64,000 nucleotides of DNA, taken from the NCBI GenBank assembly GCA_963827655.1, contig CAWHCF010000049.1, positions 365,824 through 429,823 of the forward strand. Reading direction: 5' to 3'. Shown here piece by piece: positions 1,969 to 50,087 of this stretch. Numbering within the stretch: position 1 is the stretch's first letter; each line of letters starts with the position of its first letter. The DNA is from an uncultured Acidobacteriota bacterium (GTDB lineage Bacteria; Acidobacteriota; UBA6911). The notes beneath the pieces were generated by a model that did not search any database, was not told where the DNA came from, and was given only the letters and a program-made list of their open reading frames with translations. The position numbers were made by a program, and so were the translations under genes.

Positions 1969-2946
1969 ATGGCTCGCGATCCCTTCGTTTTTGTTGGCAC
2001 GCTAGGCCAGGGAATCTTTCGCTCCGATGACGGCGGGCTTTCGTTCGTTCGCAAGAGTGTCGGGATGAACTTCGAATGCGACGTGCGGGCTCTGGCGGTG
2101 CATCCCCAGAATCCGCGGCTGCTATATGCCGGAACCAACGAAGGGCTGTACCGCAGTGACGATGCCGGCGAGCATTGGGCCCGTCTCGATTCGCCCATGA
2201 ATCACCTGGTCACGTGGTGTGTGCTGGTCGATCCGCGGCAGCCGGAGGTATTGTTTGCCGGAACACGACCGGCGCGTATCTTCCGCTCGACAGACGCCGG
2301 TCGCAACTGGGTGCAGCTCGATGTCGCGATCGCCCAGCATTGCGACAACCTGGTCTACAATCGGGTGACCACACTGTTGCCCGATCCAAACGTCTTCGAA
2401 GGGTTGTGGGCCGGGATCGAGATTGATGGTATTTGGGGGAGCTCTGATCTCGGTGAAAGCTGGTCACGGCATAGTGCAGGGTTGTCTTCGCTCGATATCC
2501 ATTCGATGGTAATCGTTCCGCGCGACGGGGCTTCACGACGCATCTTCGCATCGACGAACAACGACCTGAACCTGAGTACCGATGAAGGCCGGATGTGGCG
2601 GCCGCAGAGTCTCCAGGCGAAGTTCGAACTGCCCTACTTTCGCGGAACCGCGCAGAAGTCCAATGACGCAAACGTCCTGCTTCTGGGCAACGGAGACGCG
2701 CCGCCAGGTCGCGTCGGGGCCCTGTGGCGATCCGGCGACGGCGGCATCACGTGGGACCAGGCACAGTTGCCGTGCGTGCCAAACAGCACGATCTGGGGGT
2801 TCGCGGTTCATCCCGCCGATCCTGACCGGATTTACACATACAGCGTCAGCGGCGAGCTGTACGGGTCGGTAGACGGCGGGATCGAATGGGAGAAGCTCCC
2901 GCGTGAGTTTGGCGAAATCCGGGCCGTCTTGTGGACTCCCGCTTGA
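1969..2946 (+). CDS. BNR/Asp-box repeat beta-propeller protein (Ycf48-like / sialidase-like fold)
   Basis: Six S-x-D-x-G-x-x-W Asp-box repeats: YRSDDAGEHW, FRSTDAGRNW, WGSSDLGESW, LSTDEGRMW, WRSGDGGITW, YGSVDGGIEW. 325-aa ORF. Confidence 0.75.
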   Translation: MARDPFVFVGTLGQGIFRSDDGGLSFVRKSVGMNFECDVRALAVHPQNPRLLYAGTNEGLYRSDDAGEHWARLDSPMNHLVTWCVLVDPRQPEVLFAGTRPARIFRSTDAGRNWVQLDVAIAQHCDNLVYNRVTTLLPDPNVFEGLWAGIEIDGIWGSSDLGESWSRHSAGLSSLDIHSMVIVPRDGASRRIFASTNNDLNLSTDEGRMWRPQSLQAKFELPYFRGTAQKSNDANVLLLGNGDAPPGRVGALWRSGDGGITWDQAQLPCVPNSTIWGFAVHPADPDRIYTYSVSGELYGSVDGGIEWEKLPREFGEIRAVLWTPA

Positions 2947-2955
2947 CCGTTTTGA

Positions 2956-3366
2956 GAACGAGCGAATGAAAGTGAAACCGAAAAACTCGGTTCCGTCCGA
3001 AAAGCGCTGGAGCAGGCCGACGGAAGCTACGACTGGAGCGCGCAGGTAGAAGTGCAGCGGCTGGCCGCTTCTGCCTGGGTGGCGCACGCGGAAGGAAACA
3101 ACGAGGAGGCAGTCCGGCTGATGCGCTCGGCTGCTGAGCTGGAAGACACGACCGGGAAACATCCAGTCACGCCGGGAGCGGTCCTTCCCGCACGGGAGCT
3201 GTTGGGAGATCTCTTCCTCGAGCTCGACCAGCCGACGCGGGCATTGCCTGAATTTGAAACTGCGCTCCGCAATTTGCCGAAGCGGTTCAATGCGACCTAC
3301 GGCGCTGCGCGCGCAGCCGAGCTGTCAGGCGACCGAAAAAGGCGAAAGAGCGTTACACGGAACTGA
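2956..3366 (+). pseudogene. C-terminal TPR-like gene fragment with no start codon (remnant)
   Basis: The frame is open from a TGA at 2953 with no ATG/GTG/TTG until 3052. The translation (…RKALEQADGSYDWSAQVEVQRLAASAWVAHAEGNNEEAVRLMRSAAELED…AAELSGD) resembles the C-terminal helices of a TPR protein. Begins immediately after the BNR gene stop. Confidence 0.4.
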
Positions 3367-3753
3367 TCGAACTTTGCGCCGATGCCGATTCTGCCAGGCT
3401 GGAACTGCAAAATGCGAGGGCATTCCTGCAGCGCTAAGGTCCCAGCCTCGCTGGTGAGGGCGCAGTCCGTTCTACCAGCTTCTAAGATATACAAGGTCCG
3501 CCGGCCGAGGGGGCCGGAGTTGTCTGACAATGATCGTAAAAGTGGTTGATCTAGCGGCTGGGCGCTCAAGGCAGGTACTGATCCCGACATCGCGGGTCGT
3601 GACATCGTCAACAGGGCTGATTTCCTGGACCGCCGTCGAAATCAACCATCGATCAGCTACGTCGCAACTTTACCCTGCGACACTCCAGTGGAGCGATGGT
3701 TTACGATGTGGCTACCGCCTGACGCCTACACCATGCTGCCCGGAACGTGGTTT

Positions 3754-4152
3754 CTAAATAGCGATCTTGAGCGCTATTTCACTGTAGAGCGTTTCTGGAA
3801 CCTTGACGCGACGCTTTCCAGCGCTTCGGCCTGCGGTCAACTTGACGACACCGTACCCCTCGAGGAGATGTAGATCCTCCTGAACGTTCTTTAGGTTCCG
3901 GTTCAGCTTCTTTGCGAGCTGGTAGATCGAGCTCGGGCGCTCGGTTCGGATCGCTCGGAGGAGGGCCAGGCGATTTGGCGTGAGGAGGTTGCGGGCTGCT
4001 TCGATGCTGGCGAAGTAAACGCCTTCTCGACGTCGAACTCGGCGGCCCGCATCCAGCGCTTTATACGCCTCTCGGAATTCTTTCATCGCCTTTTCCACAG
4101 GTTTGATCCTTATCGTTAAGGTCTTGGCCATTTTCTCTCGCCTACGATCCAT
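3754..4152 (-). CDS. Putative DNA-binding protein (HVO_A0114 / COG4190-like wHTH), antitoxin-like partner
   Basis: 132-aa ORF: KTLTIRIKPVEKAMKEFREAYKALDAG…LTPNRLALLRAIRTERPSSIYQLAKKLNRNLKNVQEDLHLLEGYGVV. This is the winged-HTH-like pattern typical of the small regulators that pair with DUF6516-like genes. Confidence 0.5.
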   Translation of the reverse strand: MDRRREKMAKTLTIRIKPVEKAMKEFREAYKALDAGRRVRRREGVYFASIEAARNLLTPNRLALLRAIRTERPSSIYQLAKKLNRNLKNVQEDLHLLEGYGVVKLTAGRSAGKRRVKVPETLYSEIALKIAI

Positions 4153-4436
4153 CTTACATCCGACGCAAAGTCCGCAAGGAGTCTGTCGACATCCACGAAC
4201 ACATAAGGCTCTTCGATCCCTTCGATGTGGCGATGGTGCCCTTTGGGCCGATGGTTGTCGTACAGTATCGCAGGGACAGTCTCGCCGCGCCGGATGAACG
4301 CCAACCGGTACCGCACCCCCGACGTGTTCTGGGACGTTGCGGGAACCTTCCAGAGCACCAGTTCCACGATGTTGCCCGCCTCATCTATGACCTTCTCGCG
4401 AAAGATCAGTGATGCACGCGCCATCGCAGCTTCCAA
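4116..4436 (-). CDS. Small toxin-like protein (DUF6516-like), upstream member of a two-gene module
   Basis: 106-aa ORF containing the His-rich motif AILYDNHRPKGHHRHIEG. Overlaps the downstream gene by ~37 nt in operon-like fashion. The family name is recalled from memory, not searched. Confidence 0.5.
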   Translation of the reverse strand: MEAAMARASLIFREKVIDEAGNIVELVLWKVPATSQNTSGVRYRLAFIRRGETVPAILYDNHRPKGHHRHIEGIEEPYVFVDVDRLLADFASDVRWIVGERKWPRP

Positions 4437-5052
4437 TATATGGCATTACGTGCCATGTATCAAGCCAAACATATCAACCCGGCGAGGCCTGGAAAGAGAG
4501 GGGCGTTCCGGGATGGACTCGGCCAGGTATTCATCCGTCGCGAATGCGGAAATCCTGCGCAGAACAGCGTACATGCTCGATACGCGGTTAAGAAAGGCGG
4601 AGGAAGATCAGAGATGGAAACTTTCTCCCGGTTAGACCAATTACCGCTGGGAAATCTAGGTCCTGCGTAAGGTGGTTCGAATTCTCAGCGATGGCTCCCA
4701 ACAATACTCTGGTCGGCAGCAGAGGCGTCAACCAGGAACGAGCACGACGTTGTAACCGAGAGAGCGCAGAAGCGCACACTTCGTCGCGATGAGACATGTC
4801 CGAAAGAAAGGTCAAAGTCATGAACCACCCGAAAACCTCAAACAAGCACTGTTGCTGACTCAGTGGGCTCCAACCGAGAAAAATGCGTGAGGCTTCGGCC
4901 GAGAAACTTGGATCTTCGTTCTGCGCATGCTCTGTGGTCGATTACCCGAACGAATGAAAACAGCCCGCCCTAGTCTGTCTGACCACTGCGAGCATGCTCG
5001 ATTCCTGGCAGGCTGTTGGCCTGAGATTTCTTCAAATACAAAGACCCTTCGG

Positions 5053-5665
5053 TTACTTGCGCATGGGACGCAGCTTGATATTGCGGAACTCGATCCGGTT
5101 GTCCTTCTGGCACTGGAAGCCAACCACACCGGAAGAGTGTTTGGACTCCCGCGCGTCGAGCAAAGTCTTGCCGTTAAGCACAACCACGAAGCGGTCGCCC
5201 TCGGCCGTGATCTCGTAGCTGTTCCACTGGTCCGGGAGGATCTTGGTAGCGGCTGCCTTGAGCGATCCTACCAGGCTGCCGGTGTTGAATCCCGCCGGCT
5301 GATAATCCCAGATCTGGAGTTCGTAGCCTGTGATGTGCGGCTGCCCTTCCTTCTGCGAGCGCAGGAAAATGCCGCTGTTCACCTTCTCCGGGCCGCGGAA
5401 CTCCAGCTTCAGAAGCGAAATCGGAGAACGATGCCGAAGTGCCAATCCAGCTCGGCATCGTCCCCGCGCAGACCATCGCTCCATTCTCCGCCTTCCAGTC
5501 TCCCGTCCCGTGCGTCTCCCATCCGTCGAGACTCTTGCCGTCGTATAAAAGCACCCAGCCTTCCGCCGCCTCTTTCTGAGTGAGCGTATTGGGCCGGTCC
5601 TGACCGCGGACCGCACTCGCCGCCAGCGCCACGAGACCGATCCCGATAACCAATTGGCGAACCAT
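5053..5665 (-). pseudogene. DUF1080 (3-keto-disaccharide hydrolase-like, LamG fold) secreted protein, interrupted by one frameshift near ~5415
   Basis: ORF 5174-5665 gives signal peptide + EGWVLLYDGKSLDGWETHGTGDWKAENGAMVCAG…SWIGT. ORF 5053-5616 in another frame gives the family C-terminus LLKLEFRGPEKV…GVVGFQCQKDNRIEFRNIKLRPM. The two frames abut at gatttcgcttctgaagctgga. Confidence 0.7.
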
Positions 5666-5743
5666 GAAAAAATACCTCCGTGTCTCCGGCTGATTATCCA
5701 GTTTCAGAACCGCCCATGACGGAGCGGCCGGTGGCCGTTCTCC

Positions 5744-6706
5744 TCACCACGGCATCGACCTCTTACTGAATTTCCGGCCTTTCTCGGCAGCCGCCTGACC
5801 GCCGGCGCAGATCATGACGCCCTCCTTGATCATGTCTTCGACGTTATTCTCACCGCAGGCGTTCAGGAAGAAGATCTTCGCCTCCTTGGTGGCCTTGAGG
5901 ACACGGGAGCGCGCCTGAAGCATCACCGGCGGAAACTGCCGTTCGCCTCCGCCCGGCCCCTCGCTCTGGGTCAGGCCGACCAGTGACCATCCCATGTCTC
6001 CGGGTCCCCACTCGGCAAACCCGACGCCCGGCACCTTGGACACCTTCTCGGCATTGGCCAGGGCATGCTTGTCTTCGATCTTCAGTCCCAGCAGGATCTC
6101 GCCATTCTTGTTAAGCGGCCAGGGATCGGCCTTTTTCAAGTACTCGGTGGCAGGGATGCCCCAGATCTGCGCCGCAAAACCCTGGCTGCCGCTGCCACGG
6201 AATCCTTCGCCAATTCCGACAACTTTTTCGGCAAACGGATACCGGCTGGCCTCGACCATGATCCGGATCGCCTCCGGGGAGCGCGCGTGACACAAAAGAA
6301 TCCCGTGGACCCCGCAGGCCAGCACCTGCTGCACGACCCAGTAATTCGCCCGCATGCTGATCTCGTCCAGACCCAGGACTGGAAGGGTGGCGATGACGGC
6401 CGGTGTCCGATGGCCGCTCTTGGTCGGGCCGCCTTCCACCAGACCGCGCATGAACTCGCGCAGAGCCGTCATGTCAAACGCGCCGTGCTCCATCTCGTAG
6501 TTGATGTAGTCGGCGTAGGTCTGGGCCAGTTTCTTCCCCTCCTCAAAGCCGCCGCGCCCGCCCGTGTAGTAAATCGGCTGGCCCTGCTCGAGCAGTTCAA
6601 TAGCCTTGTTGATTCGTTTAGGCTTTCCAGTCGCCGGGTTTTGCGCCGCCAGTGGCGCGGCAGCCAGCACGATGGCAATTAGCGTGAATACAAAAGATCT
6701 CTTCAT
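5744..6706 (-). CDS. HpcH/HpaI-family aldolase (2-keto-3-deoxy-sugar-acid aldolase/citrate-lyase-beta-like TIM barrel) with predicted signal peptide
   Basis: Start at MKRSFVFTLIAIVLAAAPLAAQ (internal M of the 333-aa ORF). Body shows HpcH/HpaI-like conservation (…LPVLGLDEISMRANYWVVQQVLACGVHGILLCHARSPEA…GLKIEDKHALANAEKV…). Confidence 0.7.
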   Translation of the reverse strand: MKRSFVFTLIAIVLAAAPLAAQNPATGKPKRINKAIELLEQGQPIYYTGGRGGFEEGKKLAQTYADYINYEMEHGAFDMTALREFMRGLVEGGPTKSGHRTPAVIATLPVLGLDEISMRANYWVVQQVLACGVHGILLCHARSPEAIRIMVEASRYPFAEKVVGIGEGFRGSGSQGFAAQIWGIPATEYLKKADPWPLNKNGEILLGLKIEDKHALANAEKVSKVPGVGFAEWGPGDMGWSLVGLTQSEGPGGGERQFPPVMLQARSRVLKATKEAKIFFLNACGENNVEDMIKEGVMICAGGQAAAEKGRKFSKRSMPW

Positions 6707-7277
6707 GTTCTCTTTCCTCCTGATGGGGGCTCGACCGGTGGCCAAACGCCAAGGCAGGTGAGCTTCGTCGCGTACTTGTACCGCTGTTTCTATCCCCGAC
6801 GCCGTGGGAGGCGCAAGCGAATTTTGGCAGGCGGGTCGGTAAGGCTGATCTCAGGCCATGCTCGAGCAGGAATGAATGCGCGGACAGCGCTCTATAACAC
6901 CGGTGCGGAATTCTCCCTTGCGGACGGAGATGGCAAAAGAATTTTCGGTGGCATGGACGTTTTTGAACTCAGATTCCGCCTTTATGGCTAAGGGCAGCAA
7001 TCAACTGGTCCCTGAGAGTGGTGAAGCCGTTCGGCAAGGACCGGCGCTACCCGAGTTCAACCCGCAGGCGAGCCATCAAACACCGGATATTGTGCGCAGC
7101 GTGACTGAGGCCGCGGCGACCGTGCTCCGGCTAACAGCGCCGGACCCGCAATGAGGCCGATTACTCTGACTCGGCCGCCTGCAAAGCTATCCAGGAGGGC
7201 GGTCCACGCCACTTCTACTCACAGCTCACCAAAAACAAACCTCAGGCCCTCGCCTGAGAGACGAAAGGAACACCACA

Positions 7278-7850
7278 ATGAAACGGACTATCAAAATCAC
7301 CCTGCTTGCTGTAGCCCTGGCTATTCTCGCCAGCCTGCCCGGTATAGTGCCCGGCTTCAGACCTCTGGTTGAACTGCCAGGTATCGTGAAGGCCGCCAAT
7401 AAACATAACCTCACCTTCGATGTAGCGTGCGACTGCCGCATGGCCTCACCGGCATTCATCAGTGGGAACCGGGGCGATGCTTGGATTGTTAGCGGCAAGA
7501 TCTTTCCTGCCGGGACGCTTCCAGCCGGAACCGCCACCAACGATCCGACTCTGCCCGTCCGCGGAGTCGCCCCGATCGGCGATTGGACCTGTCGCGGCCA
7601 AAGCGCTTTCCCATTTCCGCCTGCCGTCGCCGCGGCTTACAGCGCTACACCCTTCGCCTTCAACACCCAGTACTTCATCCTGAACGACGGCCGGGCGTTG
7701 ACCGTGGAAGGCTATGCCATTCCAACCGGAGAGCGATTGTCGCTGACAGGGGGCATCGGCGGCTTCAGTGGCGCCGGCGGTGACGTCGAAGAAGGGCCAT
7801 TCGGCACTAATGCCACCGGATGTCCGAACTTCCATCCGTCTGCGCAGTAA
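7278..7850 (+). CDS. Secreted hypothetical protein
   Basis: 190-aa ORF with clear signal peptide (MKRTIKITLLAVALAILASLPG) and an SD-like aaaggaac upstream. No recognisable domain. Confidence 0.5.
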   Translation: MKRTIKITLLAVALAILASLPGIVPGFRPLVELPGIVKAANKHNLTFDVACDCRMASPAFISGNRGDAWIVSGKIFPAGTLPAGTATNDPTLPVRGVAPIGDWTCRGQSAFPFPPAVAAAYSATPFAFNTQYFILNDGRALTVEGYAIPTGERLSLTGGIGGFSGAGGDVEEGPFGTNATGCPNFHPSAQ

Positions 7851-10498
7851 AGAAACGCGGCCAAAGCTGACTGGGTCACCCACGACAGCGGTCCAGTTAC
7901 GCGGCGATCTGTAGCCTTCCCAGCGCTTCTTCATCTCCGCCATGAACTGAAGGAAGGCAGGGTCTTTGCGGATCGGGTCCAGGAACGAGTCGCGCGCAAA
8001 GAGTGGATAGCAGGGGAAGCCTTCATTAACCGTTATGCGCAGCCACTTCACGGCTTCTTCACTCTTGCCTCCCAGCGCGTAGATGCGGGCGAGTTCGTAC
8101 GTGGAATGATGATACCCGCGGGATTGTTCGGACCTTTTCTAAAACTGAAAGGGCCACCGCTTCAGCCTCCTGGTGTTTCCCCTGCAAAGCCAGCAACAAT
8201 GCCCGGTATACGCGGGTCCACGGGCGGTTGGGATCTTGATACTCCTGCTCGACCCGCGGTTCGGCTTCCTTCAACATTCTCTTTTCGACGTAATATCTGA
8301 GATCGGGTCCCCGATTGAAAAATCTTTTGTTCGCCTCTAAACCCTCATCGGGTCTGGCCGATTGAAGATAGTGGACGACATAGTATTCTTTGGTCCGATC
8401 GTTATTAGGGTCTATCTTCAGGGCTAACTCAAACTCTTCGACCGCCTGCTTTTCCAGGCCGATGTGGTGGTAGAGGTCCGCTAGTTCGGAATGGCCCGCG
8501 TTAGGATCATGCTCTTGTGCCAGACGCAACTCGCGAATTGCAGTTTCAACCTGCCACCCTTCGTACTGGCTGAAGGAAATGAAATAACGCGCCGCGTGAA
8601 CTTCAGCCAGTTGCGGATCGAGTCTTTCCGCGATGCCAAGTTCCTGTTTCGCCTGTTCAATCAGAGTAGGATTGTTTTCCTGAAACACGGCTATCCGAGC
8701 ATAGGCATACCCAAGTTGAGCGTGAGCCAGGGCATATTTCGGATCAAGATCAATCGCTTTCTTAAAGAGATCGATCGCCAGTTCGGACTCTGATCACTAT
8801 TGAGACTGGGACCAATACCACCAGAGTGATAGATGGCCTTCGCGTAGTAGCTATAGGCTTCGAGGTTCGAGGTATAGCGGTTGGTGAGCCGTGCGTGCTG
8901 CGCCGGGCTGAGCTTGAGTGCTCAGACGCTGCGCCACCTGCTGCGAAACCTTGTCTCTGAATTGCGAACATGTCGGTCAAGCGCTCATCAAACTGCTCGG
9001 CCCACAACGAGGCGCTATCCTCGACTCTGATCAGATTCACGGTCACTCGCAACTGGTCGCCCACTTGCAGGAACGTGCTGTCGAGCACGGCATCCACCTT
9101 CAGCTCGCGGCCGCTGCGAGCGCGTCCATTTCCGGGTTAACATATTTGCGCACCGCGCTGGGCGGGCGCACCGTCAGTTCGCCGCTCTGGCTGACCTTCG
9201 TGATGATCTCGGTCGCGATGCCCAGTCCGAGGTAGTCCTCCGTCGGCTCACCGGATTGAGCGATTTGAACGGCAGCACTGCGAGTGATCTGATTTCAGGC
9301 TGTGACCCTGCCGGCGGGCTTCGCCAGAGCAACCAGGAGCCGAGTCCTGCCATCACGACCACGATCACCGCAGCCCAGGCCAGCCTGACGCGAGAGCTGA
9401 GCCAACCGCCCCACCTGAGGCCGGGCGCGCTGACTGTGCTGGTCACGGTTAACTCTTTCGCCCTTTCTTCCAGCTCCTGGTACAGGGCCTTCAGATCCCG
9501 GAGCACGTCCTTGATGGTTTGATAGCGCTCCTCACGGTCTTTGCGCAGCGCTTTCGTCACGATCCGCTCCAGCTCGACCGGAACCTCAGGTAAGAACTGG
9601 GTGAGTGGAAGCGGCTCCTTGGCCAGGAGCGCCGCAATCACGTCGCTCGAGGTCTTGCCTTCGAATGGGGCGCGCCCCGCGATCATCTCGTAGAGGACAA
9701 CGCCCAGGCTGAAGATGTCACTGCGCGCATCCACCTTCTGCCCCCGTGCCTGTTCCGGTGACATATAGTGCACGGTGCCCATCACCACGCCGGCCTCCGT
9801 GCTGACTTCGGCCAGCCGTCAATGCCGCAGTGTCTATGGCCTGCACGCGTGGCTCGGTCAACTTGGCCAGGCCAAAGTCCAAGACTTTGACGTACCCATC
9901 GCGCCGGAGCATGACGTTCTCGGGCTTGACGTCGCGATGCACAATCCCGGCCTCGTGCGCCGCGGCTAAAGCACTCGCAACTTGCACGGCCACGTCGAGG
10001 GCTTCTCTGATCTCGAGCCTCGCGCTCTTCATCCGCTGGCGCAGCGTCTGGCCGTCGATGAACTCGGTGACGAGGTAATGTCTCCCGTCAACTTGCCCGA
10101 TCTCGTGAATGGTGAGGATATTCGGATGGTTGAGCGCCGAGGCCGCCCGCGCCTCTTGCTCGAAGCGGCGCACTCGCTCGGCCTCTTGGGTGAAGCGGGC
10201 CGGCAGCAGCTTGAGCGCGACTTTACGTCTCAGCCTCTGATCCTCGGCCAGGTAGACTTCCCCCATCCCGCCCGCGCCGAGCAGCGAGAGAATCTGGTAG
10301 TGGCCAATCCGTTGCCCAATCAAGGCCGGCACTGAAGCCTGCAGCCTGCGCGCGCGACGCGATCAGCGACTCGACTTCCCGCCGCAGGGCCTCATCGCCG
10401 GCGCACGCTTGAGCAAGGAAAGCCGCCCGCTGACCAGGTTCCAGCTCCAAAGCCGCGTGAAAGATCTGGCCGATTTGCTGATGCCGCTCAGGCGTCAT
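7851..10498 (-). pseudogene. Ser/Thr protein kinase with acidobacterial-type N-terminal domain, TM segment, periplasmic domain and C-terminal TPR repeats, broken by ~5 frameshifts
   Basis: Consecutive minus-strand ORFs carry successive parts of one protein. 10223-10498: N-domain MTPERHQQIGQIFHAALELEPGQRAAF…. 9718-10332: kinase N-lobe GxGxxG…[11 protein letters not shown]…DFGLAK. 9174-9788: [10 protein letters not shown]… plus TM. 8762-9097: VGDQLRVTVNLIRVEDSASLWAEQFDE. 8059-8688: TPRs. 7446-8051: the first ~50 codons are the TPR-protein C-terminus (…FMAEMKKRWEGY). Frame junctions are near 10230-10330, 9775-9790, 9100-9170, 8690-8760 and 8110-8125. Confidence 0.75.
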
Positions 10499-23155: not shown

Positions 23156-23247
23156 CCTTACAGGCGGTGCGAGCGCATGAACCGGGAGCTTTTTCAACGC
23201 GCTCTGATGACCCGTTCCACAGACCCAATCTTTCACAGCTTCTCAGG

Positions 23248-23324
23248 GCGGGGATCTTGAAGACTCCCCTGACACGAGGTCCGAAGGACCGGCGCGCCGG
23301 CTGTGTCGCAGCTTTGGCGCTCTT
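23248..23324. repeat. ~75-bp dispersed hairpin-rich repeat (copy 1)
   Basis: cccctgacacgaggtccgaaggaccggcgcgccggctgtgtcgcagctttggcgctc is >90% identical to 48240-48298. Contains the ggtccgaaggacc hairpin. Confidence 0.6.
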
Positions 23325-44620: not shown

Positions 44621-47600
44621 TTACAGGCGGATTTCGGCCTCGCGGGCAGGCAGGATGCGCACCGGCCCCAGGAGCCCGGATGCGAGCAGCGGCGTGCTCT
44701 TATTCCAGCGCGCGTTGGTGCGCGCAAGCTCCGATGCTTCCGACAGCGCCTGACCGGTCAAGCGATTTGACCACGTGTTGGCCACTTCCACCTCCAGGCG
44801 GTTCGTGCCGGCGTCTGCCGCTTGAGTGATCTCGAGCCGGAACGGTCGGGTCCAGCAGATTCCTGCTTCTTTGCCGTTAAGGCGGAGGCGGGCGATCACG
44901 CGCACATCACCCAGGTCGAGAAACAGGCGCAGACCGGGTTCGAAAAGCTCACCAGGGAGGTCGACCGTCTTACTGTAAGTGGCGATTCCGGAGAAATACT
45001 TGATCCCCGGCTCGGTGTTTTCCGTCCATGACACCAGCCTCGGGAAAGTTGTCGAGACGGGCGCTCCCCAGCCCTCGCCGAAACGAACGTCCCACGGTCC
45101 GGCGATCTCAACTGCCGGAGGCATCCTGTCCAGCGTACAGTTCGACTGCCGACCGGCACGGACCCGGTAAGAGCCGGGACTGAACGAGAGCAGCTTCACG
45201 CGGTCTTGATCCGGCATCGACACTTCAACCGATGGGAGATGCTCGATCGCCATGTTGGCCGCGACCGCCTGTCCATCGCGGACAATTGTTAAAGGTTCCG
45301 AGTTCGTGGACCGGTCGAACACCACGAACGACGAGCCGAGGGGTGGGAGAACGAGTGGAACGCGCGTACCGCCGCCGTCGGCTCCGGATACGGGCAGCGG
45401 GTGCCTGACACCGGTCACGGGATCCCAGAGATTCGGCCGGCCCTTTTGCGCGAAAGACGCAATCAGCCGGGGCCCATTCTTCGCCCTTGTTGCGGACGAA
45501 GTAGACGTCGCGAGGGCCGTCCCGGCGATGGATGTAATCGAGATCGATTTGGCCGCCACGGCCCGAGAAAGAGAAATCCGGCCGCAATCCGCGGCGTCGC
45601 AGAATCTCGGCGATGGACACGCCGCAATAGACCATGCCCTTACCGTGCGCCCGCTCTCGGATCCGTACGCCATCGCAATCGCCCCAGAGCCTGGAAGCAA
45701 GATCCCGCACCCTGGCGTCGCAATCGGGATAGTCCCTCAGGCCTGTGGCGCGCCGGGGCCTCGGCCCGGAAACAGTCGCGCCTTCGCGGACCAGTTGCTC
45801 GATCCGTTCGAGAACCTCGACATCCAGGTCGCGGCGATCAGGCAAGACGAGCACTTCGTAGCTCAAACCATCAGGGAGGACCAACCTGCGGTTTTTGACC
45901 ACGATTCGGTTCAGGAGCGCATCCGAGTTCGTGGTGTCGAAGTCGTAGCCGGTGGGCAAGCCGATTTCGGCCGCGGAGCTTTTTTCAGGCGCGAAGTTGA
46001 AGCCCCGCTCGCCGTAGTAGTAGCAGATGTCGGCGACGAACAAGCCCTGCCGCAGGAACCAGGAGCAGCGGGCAAGGTAATCGAGAAACGGGTTGACCAT
46101 TGGCCACCAGGTTTCGTTCGGGCCGAAGTGAGTGCCGGCGTGATAGACCCATCCAGGCTTGCCCGCCTGCTCGGGCACGTGCGGCATGGTATGCCAGACG
46201 AAGTGATTGGCGCCGTCGCAGAAAGCGCGGTCGGCAATTTCTTTGATGTCACGTGGGCCGTCCTGCCAGTGCCGGAAGCTGGTGAATGCTTCCATTTGCA
46301 CCAGAGGCCGGCCGTAAATGTGGGCTGCCGAAGCGGTCTCTTTCACCACCCAGGTCTGCCGTCCCTTCCAGAATTCGCCTCGGGGAATGTCCAGAGCGCC
46401 CTGGGCTCTGAGCGCATCGACGGGGACCTGGTGCAATGGCCAGCCGGGGCCGCCGGCTTCGGCGACCAGCTTCAGCCCGTACTCTGAAGCGGTCTCCCGG
46501 GTCACGCGGTAGAAGTTATCGATAAACAGGTCACTGACGGTGCGACGGTAATCGATGCGGAAGCGTTCCGACACGTCTTCGTCTGCAACTACGGCGCCCG
46601 CCAGTACCGGCAGATAGCGGCGCGGGTCGTAGCCGCGCCGGCGACGGAATTCCTCGATAAAGTTCGGAGTCCAGATCGAGCCACGGACCTCGTAGCTGCA
46701 CGCATAAAAATACTTCAGCGCCGTCTTGCGAAGATCGCCCAGCTCCGCGCGCAGGCGCTCCAGCATATGCCGCGTGTGCATGCGGGCTGCATCCGCGCTG
46801 AAGTGATCGATAATGAAACCATCGGAGTGCGGGCTGGGGGCTTTCAGCTTTTCTCCGTTATTGGCCGCGATGAATCGGTACACAATCCATTTTCCGGCAG
46901 GGACGTCCCAGGTGAGGCGGTTGTGCGCGTCGAGACGGCTCGTCAGGTCCAGGATCTCCGATGGATCTCTGACCAGGGGAGGAGCCCCGCTCACGGCGGC
47001 CCAGCTACCCTCGGGGCCGGTCAACCGCCCATCATAGATATTTTCGGCCATCCACTCGCGCTCGAGGCCAGCCTCCGTGGTGAAGCGCACCAGGCCCCCG
47101 ACCGTCTTGCGGCCGTCGGCCGTCTGGACTGTCACGACGTTGTGGCGTCGGCCGAGAACGCTTCGAACTCAGCCAGCGCCACGCGGCCACCGGGATCATG
47201 ACCGGAGACGACGCGGAGCTTCAGGAACTTCGCGCGAGCGGGCGGAATCGTAAAGGATTGTGCTCCCGTGCGGGCCTGCAGGGTACCGCGAAATGCTTCA
47301 CGGAAATCCGAGGCATCGCTTCCCGATTCCGAAGCGTAGATGACAAACTCTTTGACGGATGAGTCCGACGCGGCATTGTGCAGCGTCACGCGGTTCACGG
47401 TGTGAGTCCCCGGGGCGAGATCGAAGACGAAGTCGAAACCCGGCCAGCTCTCATCAGCCGAAAGTGCGAGCACGGCCACGTCGTTGTAGTAGGCGGGCGA
47501 GCCGTCGAGGTTTCGCGGCACCGGCGCGGGAAGCTTCGGGAAGGGCAATACCTCGGAGAAAGTGGCAGGTCCCTGGACGGTCATGCGCGACCAATACAGT

Positions 47601-48025
47601 CCCTTGCTTGCGTGGTTCGGGCCGACCCACGATCCGCCGGAGTTCCAACTGCTGGCGTTGGTAAGGCCGACTTCCATGCCTAGACGTCCGGCTTCGCGCA
47701 CGGCGTGAGCGATCGCCTGGAGAGACTCCGTCCCCATGTATGCAGGTCCGGCTGGCACGCGATCGCCCGCGCGAGCCCCGATTTCCAGGATGTAGACGGC
47801 GCTGATGCCTGCTTTCTTCAGCTCCTCCAGTTCGCGGGTCATGCTGCGCCTGTCGGTGAATCCATTCAGCCATACCCAGTAGGTGGACGGGCGCGCCTCC
47901 CAGGGCGGATCGGCGAAGTGGGATACGTCCGCGTCGGCGCGCAGTTGTCGCGCTGCCAGCAAGGCGCCGCCGGCAATGAGAAATTCGCGGCGATTCAATC
48001 GGGTCTCCGCCATGGCCTCGCTCAA
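44621..48025 (-). pseudogene. Large (~1130 aa) Tat-secreted glycoside-hydrolase-like protein with inserted discoidin-like domain and GH2-type sugar-binding-like C-terminal domain; split over 3 ORFs (4-nt overlap at 47132-47135; frame change within 45225-45700)
   Basis: 47132-48025: Tat signal RREFLIAGGALLAA, TIM-barrel start (YWVWLNGF…AVYILEIG) and an F5/8-type-C-like segment. 45225-47135: …KYFYACSYEVRGSIWTPNFIEEFRRRRGYDPRRYLPVLAG…. 44621-45700: …RLFLDLGDVRVIARLRLNGKEAGICWTRPFRLEIT…NRLEVEVANTWSNRL. Could alternatively be 2-3 translationally coupled genes. Confidence 0.55.
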
Positions 48026-48045
48026 AAATAGAAGCGCAACGCGCC

Positions 48046-48130
48046 TGGTGCTTCTTCGTGTCTTTCAGTCTTAACGGTATTTGTCAGACAGCTCCAACCA
48101 CGAAGACACGAAGGAACACTAAGTCGGTTG
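48046..48130. repeat. REP-like extragenic inverted repeat pair (ggtgcttcttcgtgtctttcag … aaccacgaagacacgaaggaacactaag)
   Basis: Two arms in opposite orientation separated by ~30 nt. Same family as 10682-10740. Confidence 0.6.
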
Positions 48131-48226
48131 GTTCATAATTACGCCGACGTATTGGGCAGAGTCGGAGTCGGCTGTGTTGTTGCCTAGGGCCGAAGGCCCG
48201 TCAGTGAGTAGCCCCGCCCGTAAGGG

Positions 48227-48300
48227 CGGGGTTTTCAAAGGGTCCCTGACACGAGGTCCGAAGGACCGGCACTCCGGCTGTGTCGCACCTTCGGCGCTCC
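48227..48300. repeat. ~75-bp dispersed hairpin-rich repeat (copy 2), preceded by ccccgcccgtaagggcgggg and gggccgaaggccc hairpins
   Basis: ccctgacacgaggtccgaaggaccggcactccggctgtgtcgcaccttcggcgctcc matches 23265-23322. Confidence 0.6.
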
Positions 48301-48435
48301 TTTTTAATATTGCAAGTATGATCCCGGCCTTACGGCCGGGCCTACTCTCTGGCGGCCCTTCAGGCCTTACTGCCAAAATACAGTCACCGTAATTGCGAAC
48401 AGCAGCACTAAGGACGAATTTTTGAAGCTCTGTAC

Positions 48436-49428
48436 TCAGGTTGCGCTCCGCTGCATCTCTCGTCCGCTGTCGGGGAGGTTAAGCTTCCACCAGGATTCCG
48501 CGTGGGTTTGGGTCCAGCGGGCTCCCAATTCCACCTTATTCAATTCTTCCCAGAGTTCCAAGGCTGAAGAAGGCCTATCCGTTGGCAGCTTTTCCAGGCA
48601 GGCGAGAACGATGTCGTCAAGAGTTGCGGGAATGTGGAGCTTGCACTCTTGCGATGGCGGGGAAGGTTTCCGCTGAGTATGCTCGAGCATCAGTTGGACC
48701 ACGTTGTCGGCTTCAAAAGGAGGTCGTCCGGTCAGCATCCAGTAAGCCACGCACCCGACGCCGTACAAGTCCGCCCTGTGGTCCACCGCCTGTCCGAGGA
48801 TTACTTCCGGTGCCGCGAAGGCAGGCGTCCCCACGAAGCCGCCGGTGCCGGTAACCGTCGTCTGCTCGCACGCTGCCCCCTCCTTGACCATTCCAAAATC
48901 CAGTACCTTGAGAAAGTCGTATTCGGAACCCATCTTGCACACGAAAATGTTGCCCGGCTTGATATCTCGATGGACGAGTCCGGCTTCGTGCGCCTCGGTC
49001 AGGGAACGGCACGTCTGTTGCAACAACATGGCGGCGAGCTGCATGGCCATCATCCCGGTATAGTGCATGGCGCCGATTCCAAGACCCATCAACATGCCAC
49101 TCAGCAGGAGAAGCGGAACACTCCACTGCTTCCGGCTCATCATCAACAAAACGACTCCTGCCGCCAGAACCGATGGGATCACCGACAACAACGTTGTCTG
49201 GATATCGTAGGTGACAGGAATCGGCAGGCGCAGGGCCAGCATGCCGATGAAGTGCATTGCCCATACGCCCATTCCCATAGTCGCGGCGCCGGCGACGAGC
49301 CAGGCGGCGAGGGTCGACGTTTTCTCCGATCCCTTAATGCGACCGGACAGTCCGAAGACCGCATAAGAGGCGATGGAAGCAATCACAACGGAGACTGCTA
49401 CAAGCTCCGGGTTGTAGGAAGCTGGCAG
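48436..49428 (-). CDS. Chimeric MHYT-domain (membrane sensor) N-terminus fused in-frame to a Ser/Thr-kinase C-lobe lacking the ATP-binding N-lobe; probable CTG start with strong SD
   Basis: MHFIGM and MHYTGM motifs in TM helices, then directly …AAMLLQQTCRSLTEAHEAGLVHRDIKPGNIFV…DFGMVK…APE… (kinase subdomains VIb-XI only). Upstream in frame there is no ATG/GTG/TTG, but aaggag + 7 nt + CTG at 49428 gives LVPIKFLTGSSSVDLALPASYNPELVAVSV…, the typical MHYT N-terminus. Confidence 0.55.
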   Translation of the reverse strand: MPASYNPELVAVSVVIASIASYAVFGLSGRIKGSEKTSTLAAWLVAGAATMGMGVWAMHFIGMLALRLPIPVTYDIQTTLLSVIPSVLAAGVVLLMMSRKQWSVPLLLLSGMLMGLGIGAMHYTGMMAMQLAAMLLQQTCRSLTEAHEAGLVHRDIKPGNIFVCKMGSEYDFLKVLDFGMVKEGAACEQTTVTGTGGFVGTPAFAAPEVILGQAVDHRADLYGVGCVAYWMLTGRPPFEADNVVQLMLEHTQRKPSPPSQECKLHIPATLDDIVLACLEKLPTDRPSSALELWEELNKVELGARWTQTHAESWWKLNLPDSGREMQRSAT

Positions 49429-49820
49429 GGCCAGGTCAACGGAAGAACTGCCGGTTAGAAACTTGATGGGAACCAGTTGCTGACTCCTTTCACGGCCATG
49501 CGGGAGGGCACATCAATCGGATACTCGACCTCGGTCGCATTTTGCAACTCTGATAGGAAGGGCTCCCTCTCCAGGGTCGAATCGACCATGAGAAGGTCTG
49601 TCCGGCATTCAGGTATTTCAGTTCCGCTATACGGCAGCATGCCGCATTATAACCCTGTCCGCTGGTTATGAGATGCCTGGACGGCCGAGGCCTGCCGCTG
49701 CAGGACAATCCAGATGCGTAGCCGACTTAATGTTTTTCCTGGTCCGGCGAACACGCCGGCCTTGGTCCAAAGCAGGCGTTGCAGGTAACGTAGCTCGGAG
49801 ATCACGCGAGGGGGGATTGA

Positions 49821-50087
49821 GTGTCCTTTCTACTTAAGTGCCCTAATTGCGGTGAACGCAGCGTGTACGAATTTCGCTTCGGGGGAGAATACCGGCCGCG
49901 TCCCGCACGGGATGCGCCGGATTCTGCGTGGGTCGAATACGTGTATTCACGAGAAAACAAAAACGGCGTGCACCGGGAGTGGTGGTACCACCGCGACGGG
50001 TGCGGAGCCTGGTTTCTGGCCCAGAGGGACACGGTCACCAATAACGTTCTGACAACCGTATGGCCCGAGAGTGCCACACAGGATTAA
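49821..50087 (+). CDS. soxD: Sarcosine oxidase delta subunit
   Basis: 88 aa; GTG start with SD gagggggg; N-terminal C-P-N-C-G zinc ribbon (LLKCPNCGERSVYEFRFGGEY) typical of SoxD. Confidence 0.8.
   Translation: MSFLLKCPNCGERSVYEFRFGGEYRPRPARDAPDSAWVEYVYSRENKNGVHREWWYHRDGCGAWFLAQRDTVTNNVLTTVWPESATQD

Follow-up and report, generated by a model that had tools for sequence, protein, structure and literature searches.

On the minus strand of a 64,000-nucleotide stretch of DNA from an uncultured Acidobacteriota bacterium (hereafter, the window), a single open reading frame runs from transmembrane helices with MHYT motifs directly into the second half of a protein kinase, and the question that it raises is whether such a frame represents a new kind of sensor protein, a fusion of two genes, or the remainder of a larger gene. 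The initial annotation had described an in-frame chimera of an MHYT N-terminus and a kinase C-lobe, and the chimera is real: Pfam assigns MHYT and Pkinase within one open frame. Its extent was revised in part; the stop end at 48436 is retained, the start at 49428 was slightly short, the homologous N-terminus beginning at 49476, and the strand label was wrong, the feature being on the minus strand. The features used below are as follows.

49476 to 48436, minus strand: fused MHYT/kinase C-lobe open reading frame, 346 residues counted from the CTG
49513 to 49515, minus strand: in-frame TGA that closes the frame 5' of the CTG
49484 to 49489, minus strand: Shine-Dalgarno-like AAGGAG, 7 nt before the CTG, conserved in the related contigs L001 and L002
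49474 to 49476, minus strand: CTG at the ancestral start-codon position, either a non-canonical start of low strength or an ATG that has mutated
49384 to 49386, minus strand: GTG, the first canonical in-frame start, inside TM1 and used in the public gene call P0360 (316 aa)
49030 to 49476, minus strand: MHYT remnant, 149 codons, TM1-TM4 (Pfam PF03707 and alignment to the intact protein P0361)
49257 to 49240, minus strand: MHYT motif 1, MHFIGM (script-verified)
49068 to 49051, minus strand: MHYT motif 2, MHYTGM (script-verified)
49027 to 49035, minus strand: deletion junction GCCGCC/ATG, break at 49030/49029 (BLAST of L002 against the window with flanks)
48439 to 49029, minus strand: kinase C-lobe remnant, 197 codons, Hanks subdomains ~VIa to XI (Pfam PF00069 and alignments)
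48972 to 48964, minus strand: HRD (in HRDIKPGN), residue 169
48900 to 48892, minus strand: DFG, residue 193
48813 to 48805, minus strand: APE, residue 222
48436 to 48438, minus strand: stop codon TGA of the fused frame

The minus-strand frame is free of stops from 49512 to the terminating TGA (48438-48436), and neither a stop nor a frameshift interrupts the 346 codons. PF03707 is matched in three stretches over residues ~20-149 (E 4e-27; 94.4 bits, cutoff 21) and PF00069 over residues 138-304 (E 5.6e-29; NCBIfam concordant), both with scores far above chance level. Of the 263 positions of the Pkinase profile, only 90-254 are matched; thus, the kinase N-lobe is absent. Both MHYT motifs that had been noticed initially, MHFIGM and MHYTGM, were located. 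They are 2 of the three MH(Y/F)xGM motifs of the domain, which is incomplete in the window: the third motif, GMHYTGM (present in L002, P0121 and P0361), lies inside the segment that is deleted here, and the third repeat (TM5-6) and TM7 are gone. The window frame contains four hydrophobic segments; TM5-7 are found in L002, in the MHYT-histidine kinase L087 and in P0361, and not here.

In the C-lobe, the catalytic-loop HRDxKxxN, DFG and APE are all kept, the subdomain XI arginine is retained (DRPSS, residue 300), and the tail is the family-typical ELGxxWTQxHAExWW. The missing Gly-loop and VAIK lysine, which had also been pointed out from the sequence, agree with the Pkinase match that begins at position 90 and with the alignments, in which the window has a gap opposite G(R/T)GGMGEVW of P0361 and L002 and, for the lysine and the alphaC glutamate, opposite PVAIKLI and RFQREAQ of L002. 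Conventional ATP binding would be impossible, as had been supposed, with the N-lobe lost. Pfam detected no AAA+ or Sigma54_activat match in the frame. Hence the frame fails as an active Hanks kinase, as a complete MHYT domain and as a member of the three-domain MHYT - AAA+ - STK family described below; it is an orthologous remnant of that family.

The parent gene was recognized in two relatives. The top match in the exhaustive HMMER search was P0361, an intact single ORF of 844 aa (GCA_027296245.1, contig JAPUJJ010000409.1, here L167, positions 5492-8043) in which a three-repeat MHYT domain is followed by Sigma54_activat, AAA_lid_14 and a full Pkinase domain. P0361 has in common with the window the MHYT helices of the N-terminus, the C-lobe of the kinase and the C-terminal tail (59% identity over the shared parts), and the window is without the equivalent of P0361 residues ~144-638 (alignment A4). 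The start site is equal in the two, but is ATG in P0361/L167 and CTG in the window. The second relative, L002, is a 6.3-kb ENA contig that was reached through P0122 in a search with the MHYT half. L002 positions 1-769 correspond to window 49808-49031 and positions 2238-6297 to window 49036-44623, with an extra 1.47 kb between them in L002; collinearity holds left and right of the deletion and extends into the GH106 gene, which lies 3' of the parent gene as in the window, with 92-98% nucleotide identity. The MHYT remnant is 94% identical to L002 in amino acids, and the C-lobe is 97.5% identical in nucleotides without a gap. The extra DNA in L002 codes for the third motif GMHYTGM with TM7, a coiled-coil linker, a sigma54-type AAA+ module with lid, and the kinase N-lobe. 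L002:1057-2838 is an AAA+-kinase ORF of 593 aa, the domains of which were confirmed with Pfam, and when L087 was aligned across the frames of L002, MHYT TM7 was found to continue into the start of this ORF; thus, MHYT, AAA+ and kinase formed one gene. This gene spans 334-2838 in L002, with ~4 frameshifts in the MHYT part of the L002 assembly. The parent with MHYT input was found intact once (P0361), and only damaged copies were found in the clade of the window.

By alignment with these undeleted genes, where the initial annotation had proposed alignment with intact MHYT proteins and STKs, the break was placed at 49030/49029. The protein reads QLAA/MLLQQ at this point (...MHYTGMMAMQLAA/MLLQQTCRSLTEAHEAGLVHRDIKPGN) and the window DNA across the join is ...CAGCTCGCCGCC/ATGTTGTTGCAACAG..., for comparison with the L002 flanks ...CAGCTCGCCGCTGAAATGTAC... 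(left) and ...GCGCGGTCGTGTTGTTGCAACAG... (right); the two flanks have no more than 1-2 nt of microhomology where they meet. The segment that is not in the window is ~1467 nt long (~490 codons; L002 ~771-2237) and comprises the third MHYT repeat with TM7, the coiled-coil linker, all of the AAA+ module, and the N-lobe of the kinase as far as alphaD/E. The event is regarded as an ordinary illegitimate deletion, because the join lacks flanking repeats, no recombinase is present, and only 1-2 nt are shared. Recombination of an MHYT gene with an STK gene had been suggested; the rearrangement scar stands, and the origin from separate genes does not, the scar being that of an internal deletion of ~1.47 kb in one three-domain gene. 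L001, a 648-kb ENA contig that is 98.9% identical to the window, has the identical junction, which indicates that the deletion is older than the split of the window and L001 and is not a one-off misassembly.

Programmed excision was also considered and was rejected, because the missing 1.47 kb codes only for the gene's own domains, no recombinase or flanking repeats are present, and microhomology does not exceed 1-2 nt. A tblastn search with the missing segment detected no displaced or frame-shifted N-lobe or AAA+ fragment elsewhere in the window, including the frame-shifted upstream N-lobe that had been envisaged. Its only match was an unrelated Ser/Thr kinase gene at ~9862-10317 (minus strand), which is 33-36% identical to the N-lobe and core of the parent kinase.

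The start of the frame was examined separately. As had been noted, AAGGAG (49489-49484) is followed by a 7-nt spacer and CTG (49476-49474). No canonical start precedes the GTG at 49386: between the TGA at 49515-49513 and this GTG there is no in-frame ATG, GTG or TTG. The CTG aligns with Met1 of P0124 (MHHLRFLDG), P0129 (MHYLRFLDS), L087 (MHMLQFLGA) and L167 (MEHFRFLDGS); in the intact gene on L167 the start is ATG at 5492 with GGGAG 6 nt upstream, and CTG is common to the window, L001 and L002 at this position. For the MHYT part, the comparison of the window with L002 gave pS 0.24, pN 0.028 and pN/pS 0.11, a ratio that shows the mark of purifying selection and indicates that the MHYT part has been translated for most of the time since the window/L002 split, although all carry CTG. 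In L002, indels of -1 and -2 nt at the TGA site let the reading frame extend to an ATG that lies 49 codons upstream; the TGA at 49515-49513 separates the frame of the window and L001 from this ATG. The start can thus be read in two ways: either CTG would work weakly in the clade, or the ATG 49 codons upstream would be used as in L002. Because of the alignment to Met1 of intact homologues, the conserved Shine-Dalgarno-like sequence and the pN/pS of 0.11, weak initiation of the window frame at CTG is plausible, if unproven.

Scanning of 48000-49900 for sigma70-like promoters gave none, and the terminator-like matches in the same interval were within shuffle expectation or inside coding sequence. 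An ORF of 61 codons (window 49455-49640, minus strand; MLPYSGTEIPEC...) overlaps with the MHYT gene leader; L002 reads the same DNA in another frame, as an N-terminal MHYT extension MPDRPSHG.... Neither frame has homologues, and 49455-49640 is therefore probably non-coding.

Between the window and L001, the C-lobe differs at 2 of 597 nt (one synonymous and one non-synonymous), and in L001 the C-lobe alone has been called as a gene (P0002, 204 aa). The MHYT part behaves differently in this comparison (pN 0.115 > pS 0.069, of which the L001-private changes may be assembly error). L001 9560-10000 (= window 49030-49476) contains ~40 private differences in ~400 nt with at least 10 indels, the CTG frame of L001 stops after 6 codons, and the window and L002 agree at the L001-private positions; in the flanking 14 kb, L001 and the window differ by ~1%. 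The density of the private changes is ~10x the local background, which is too high for neutral drift between strains that are 1% divergent, and part of it may be poor consensus. If the consensus of this segment is in fact poor, one argument for relaxed constraint would fall away. Diversity-generating or targeted hypermutation was considered for these changes and was set aside, as most of them are indels and neither a template repeat nor an adenine bias is present. Scattered indels, as in long-read assemblies, occur in all three contigs (window, L001 and L002).

Two features of the neighbouring DNA are recorded here. The GH106 gene (window 44624-48013, minus strand) is split into three frames by +2 nt (CA, ~47142) and +1 nt (T, ~45431), while it is an intact ORF of 1129 aa in L001 and L002; the split either marks a second, adjacent pseudogene or stems from indel error in the assembly of the window. 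Between the kinase stop and the GH106 start, the window has an insertion of ~354 nt relative to L002 (48081-48434), which L001 has too. It contains imperfect inverted repeats (48186-48230 and 48323-48367; 45 nt, 82%) and a further repeat pair (48131-48148 and 48383-48400), a partial copy is present at 23245-23322 (86% over 78 nt), and from these features it looks like a MITE or REP-type element.

The same gene has been shortened elsewhere in another manner. A search with the whole protein gave, besides P0002, a second informative match, P0001. P0001 (335 aa, on a 2255-bp contig of JGI 3300056388) has a different in-frame deletion, with the join ...SVLAAGVVL/CGMGEVW... from TM3 to the middle of the Gly-loop, so that VAIK and most of the N-lobe are kept; it is without the equivalent of P0361 residues ~105-541 (alignment A4). 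In P0001 the invariant APE is replaced by APK, and the glutamate is lost. The different in-frame deletion together with this loss indicates that the locus decays repeatedly. An RsgA GTPase gene lies directly 3' of P0001; in the window the GH106 gene lies between the two, and it is not in the P0001 contig.

The existence of orthologues sharing the truncated architecture had been raised initially as evidence for a true domain family. No such family was found either by the exhaustive HMMER search (1.84 billion representatives) or by the word-indexed search (5.8 billion proteins/clusters): both protein searches yielded only P0001, with its other junction, and the window's own clade, and the junction of the window occurs only in the near-identical L001. 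When JGI metagenome contigs were scanned with P0001, none of the 80 loci listed had MHYT and kinase in one gene, and the contig of P0001 itself was not among them. When GTDB species genomes were scanned with the reconstructed 840-aa parent, only MHYT-histidine-kinase relatives (~50% identity) were among the matches listed, in a scan dominated by the WAMHFIGM pattern; the species of the window was not among them.

From these data we consider the frame to be the remnant of an in-frame intragenic deletion of ~1.47 kb, most likely a recent, non-functional and not yet decayed pseudogene, with a probability of about 0.8. The comparison with the relatives shows an ancestral gene of ~840 codons, in which a membrane MHYT sensor (7 TM, three motifs) was followed by a coiled-coil linker, then by a degenerate sigma54-type AAA+ module and, at the C-terminus, by a Hanks Ser/Thr kinase. 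One illegitimate deletion of ~1467 nt turned it into the in-frame remnant of MHYT TM1-TM4 and C-lobe. The product, if made from CTG, could presumably not bind or position ATP, because the Gly-loop, the lysine and the alphaC glutamate are missing; the hinge is also absent. In the published topology (PMC9683572), an MHYT domain crosses the membrane seven times, its motifs lie at the outer face and the output is cytosolic. With four TM segments, with the loop charges (RIKGSEK and SRKQ on the inside) and with the motif side taken as the outer face as in that topology, the chain would leave the membrane after TM4 on the outer/periplasmic face, which would set the C-lobe on the wrong side. Loss of the ATP site and a C-lobe on the wrong side together make the remnant most likely a pseudogene, and essential parts have been lost: ~490 codons are gone relative to L002/P0361, and the ancestral ATG is now CTG. 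The window copy, which has no lesion besides the deletion and the CTG, and the C-lobe difference of 2/597 nt are what a recent deletion would look like and do not prove retention. Against the pseudogene reading it must be said that the intact frame, the kept C-lobe motifs and the Shine-Dalgarno-like sequence with CTG serve 'recent, not yet decayed' and 'retained because useful' equally; the Shine-Dalgarno-like sequence with CTG could permit low-level translation.

Several other explanations were weighed. If the fused protein is made, from CTG or an internal start, it might have gained a new non-catalytic role, e.g., as a membrane-anchored docking or decoy module, a KIND-like pseudokinase fragment, that would interfere with paralogous AAA+-STK proteins. 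This would be in keeping with the intact in-frame ORF, the ideally spaced Shine-Dalgarno-like sequence before CTG at the ancestral start, the MHYT pN/pS of 0.11 against L002 though all three sequences carry CTG, the near-identity of the C-lobe in L001, and the second in-frame MHYT-kinase deletion variant, P0001. However, the predicted topology sets the C-lobe outside the cytoplasm, the architecture is limited to two near-identical strains, and the MHYT frame is destroyed in L001; moreover, the low pN/pS stems mostly from the period that preceded the deletion, or from the L002 lineage, in which the gene is undeleted, and a protein search detects only in-frame variants as fusions, which is an ascertainment bias. 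We thus regard a functional fusion as improbable. A particular form of it, which we consider even less probable, is a CTG-translated, membrane-tethered, non-catalytic C-lobe that would be a bacterial counterpart of KIND and a decoy or docking partner for AAA+-STK proteins; if it were true, repeated in-frame deletions (window/L001 and P0001) would be a route to such modulators. In eukaryotes, KIND is the kinase non-catalytic C-lobe domain found in Spir, PTPN13 and v-KIND; the family is old and conserved, and its role in binding other proteins has been demonstrated. The likeness consists in a kinase C-lobe that persists as a module without its N-lobe; the window C-lobe, in contrast, is a recent deletion product in two near-identical strains, with its catalytic motifs still present. 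Expression of the C-lobe alone is also very unlikely; in this reading, translation would begin at an internal ATG (MAMQLAAM...; ATGs at 49053-49041) and yield a soluble protein of ~204 aa, the MHYT part being an untranslated leader. A public gene caller did call it so in L001 (P0002), where the C-lobe is clean and the MHYT part is scrambled, but no Shine-Dalgarno-like sequence precedes the internal ATGs, the ATP site would be missing with the N-lobe interface exposed, and the protein searches found no stand-alone C-lobe family.

The junction could instead be an assembly artefact, namely, a consensus in which a mixed population has been collapsed or chimerically joined, the real gene being full length. 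Indel noise is present in all three related contigs, with two frameshifts in the window GH106 gene; the L001 MHYT segment looks like poor consensus; and the accession that supplied the full-length allele L002 is next to the one of the L001 assembly. We give this explanation very little weight, because the identical junction occurs in two separately assembled contigs (482 kb and 648 kb) that differ at 1.1% of sites, the join is clean and in frame, and a third, differently placed deletion (P0001) is found in an unrelated JGI data set. Another proposal is compatible with the pseudogene reading and would refine it: the deletion may have occurred during the import of divergent DNA by homology-facilitated illegitimate recombination, in which the DNA from upstream through the 5' part of MHYT would stem from a less closely related donor, with an illegitimate join placing it within the kinase domain of the resident gene. 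In comparison with L002, synonymous divergence is 0.24 to the left of the junction (window 49030-49808) and 0.065 in the C-lobe (window 48435-49029), i.e., ~3.7x (Fisher p ~1e-4), and that of GH106 is 0.063 (L001 vs L002). Because the excess is synonymous, it is not sequencing noise, and the jump at or near the junction indicates that the two sides have different histories and that the locus is a mosaic recombinant. The minimal microhomology at the join also accords with import. On the other hand, the L002 sequence reaches only 200 nt upstream of the gene, with the other edge of the divergent block beyond it, and L002, not the window, could be the recombinant. We therefore hold import to be possible only tentatively, and retain the pseudogene reading with or without it.

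As for known systems, literature searches gave nothing relevant on fusions of MHYT with protein kinases or of sigma54-type AAA+ modules with Hanks kinases, and no description of the input - AAA+ - Hanks kinase architecture of the parent. YkoW, NbdA, MucR, CdgB and the MHYT-histidine kinases (L087) share with the window the MH(Y/F)xGM motifs in alternate helices, and the N-terminal pattern M-x-x-L-(R/Q)-F-L-(D/G)-G is common to the classical MHYT proteins and the window. The classical proteins have three repeats with TM7 and a cytosolic GGDEF/EAL, HisKA or MCP output, whereas the window has two repeats and exits after TM4. The closest likeness to the parent gene on the output side is the set P0241-P0253 (~700 aa; one named 'response regulator', Vicinamibacteria), in which a REC/PAS/GAF input precedes a degenerate sigma54-type AAA+ module, and a Hanks kinase forms the C-terminus. 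The coiled-coil linker, the AAA+ module and the kinase with its ELGxPWTxxxAxxWW tail are shared by the parent gene and this set; the input is soluble (REC, PAS or GAF) in P0241-P0253 and is the membrane MHYT in the parent, while the window keeps no AAA+. In the parent set, Walker A of the AAA+ module reads GPPGAGQE or GSDHE (the lysine is replaced), GAFTGA is absent, and the DE of Walker B is changed to EG or EN; judging from these residues, the module of the input-AAA+-STK proteins looks ATPase-dead.

A 'chimera' that was striking in the raw sequence was thus traced, via an undeleted orthologue, to a simple intragenic deletion. The public gene calls of 316 aa and 204 aa at this locus should not be annotated as Ser/Thr kinases. 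The remnant itself is ordinary; only the parent architecture and the small series of deletions merit further work. The series is a natural one and comprises, at one locus, the full-length gene, the TM3-to-Gly-loop deletion and the TM4-to-alphaE deletion. The parent architecture is the more interesting, as it couples a putative gas- or metal-sensing MHYT domain to a Hanks kinase through a sigma54-type AAA+ module that appears ATPase-dead, and the family may deserve a study of its own.
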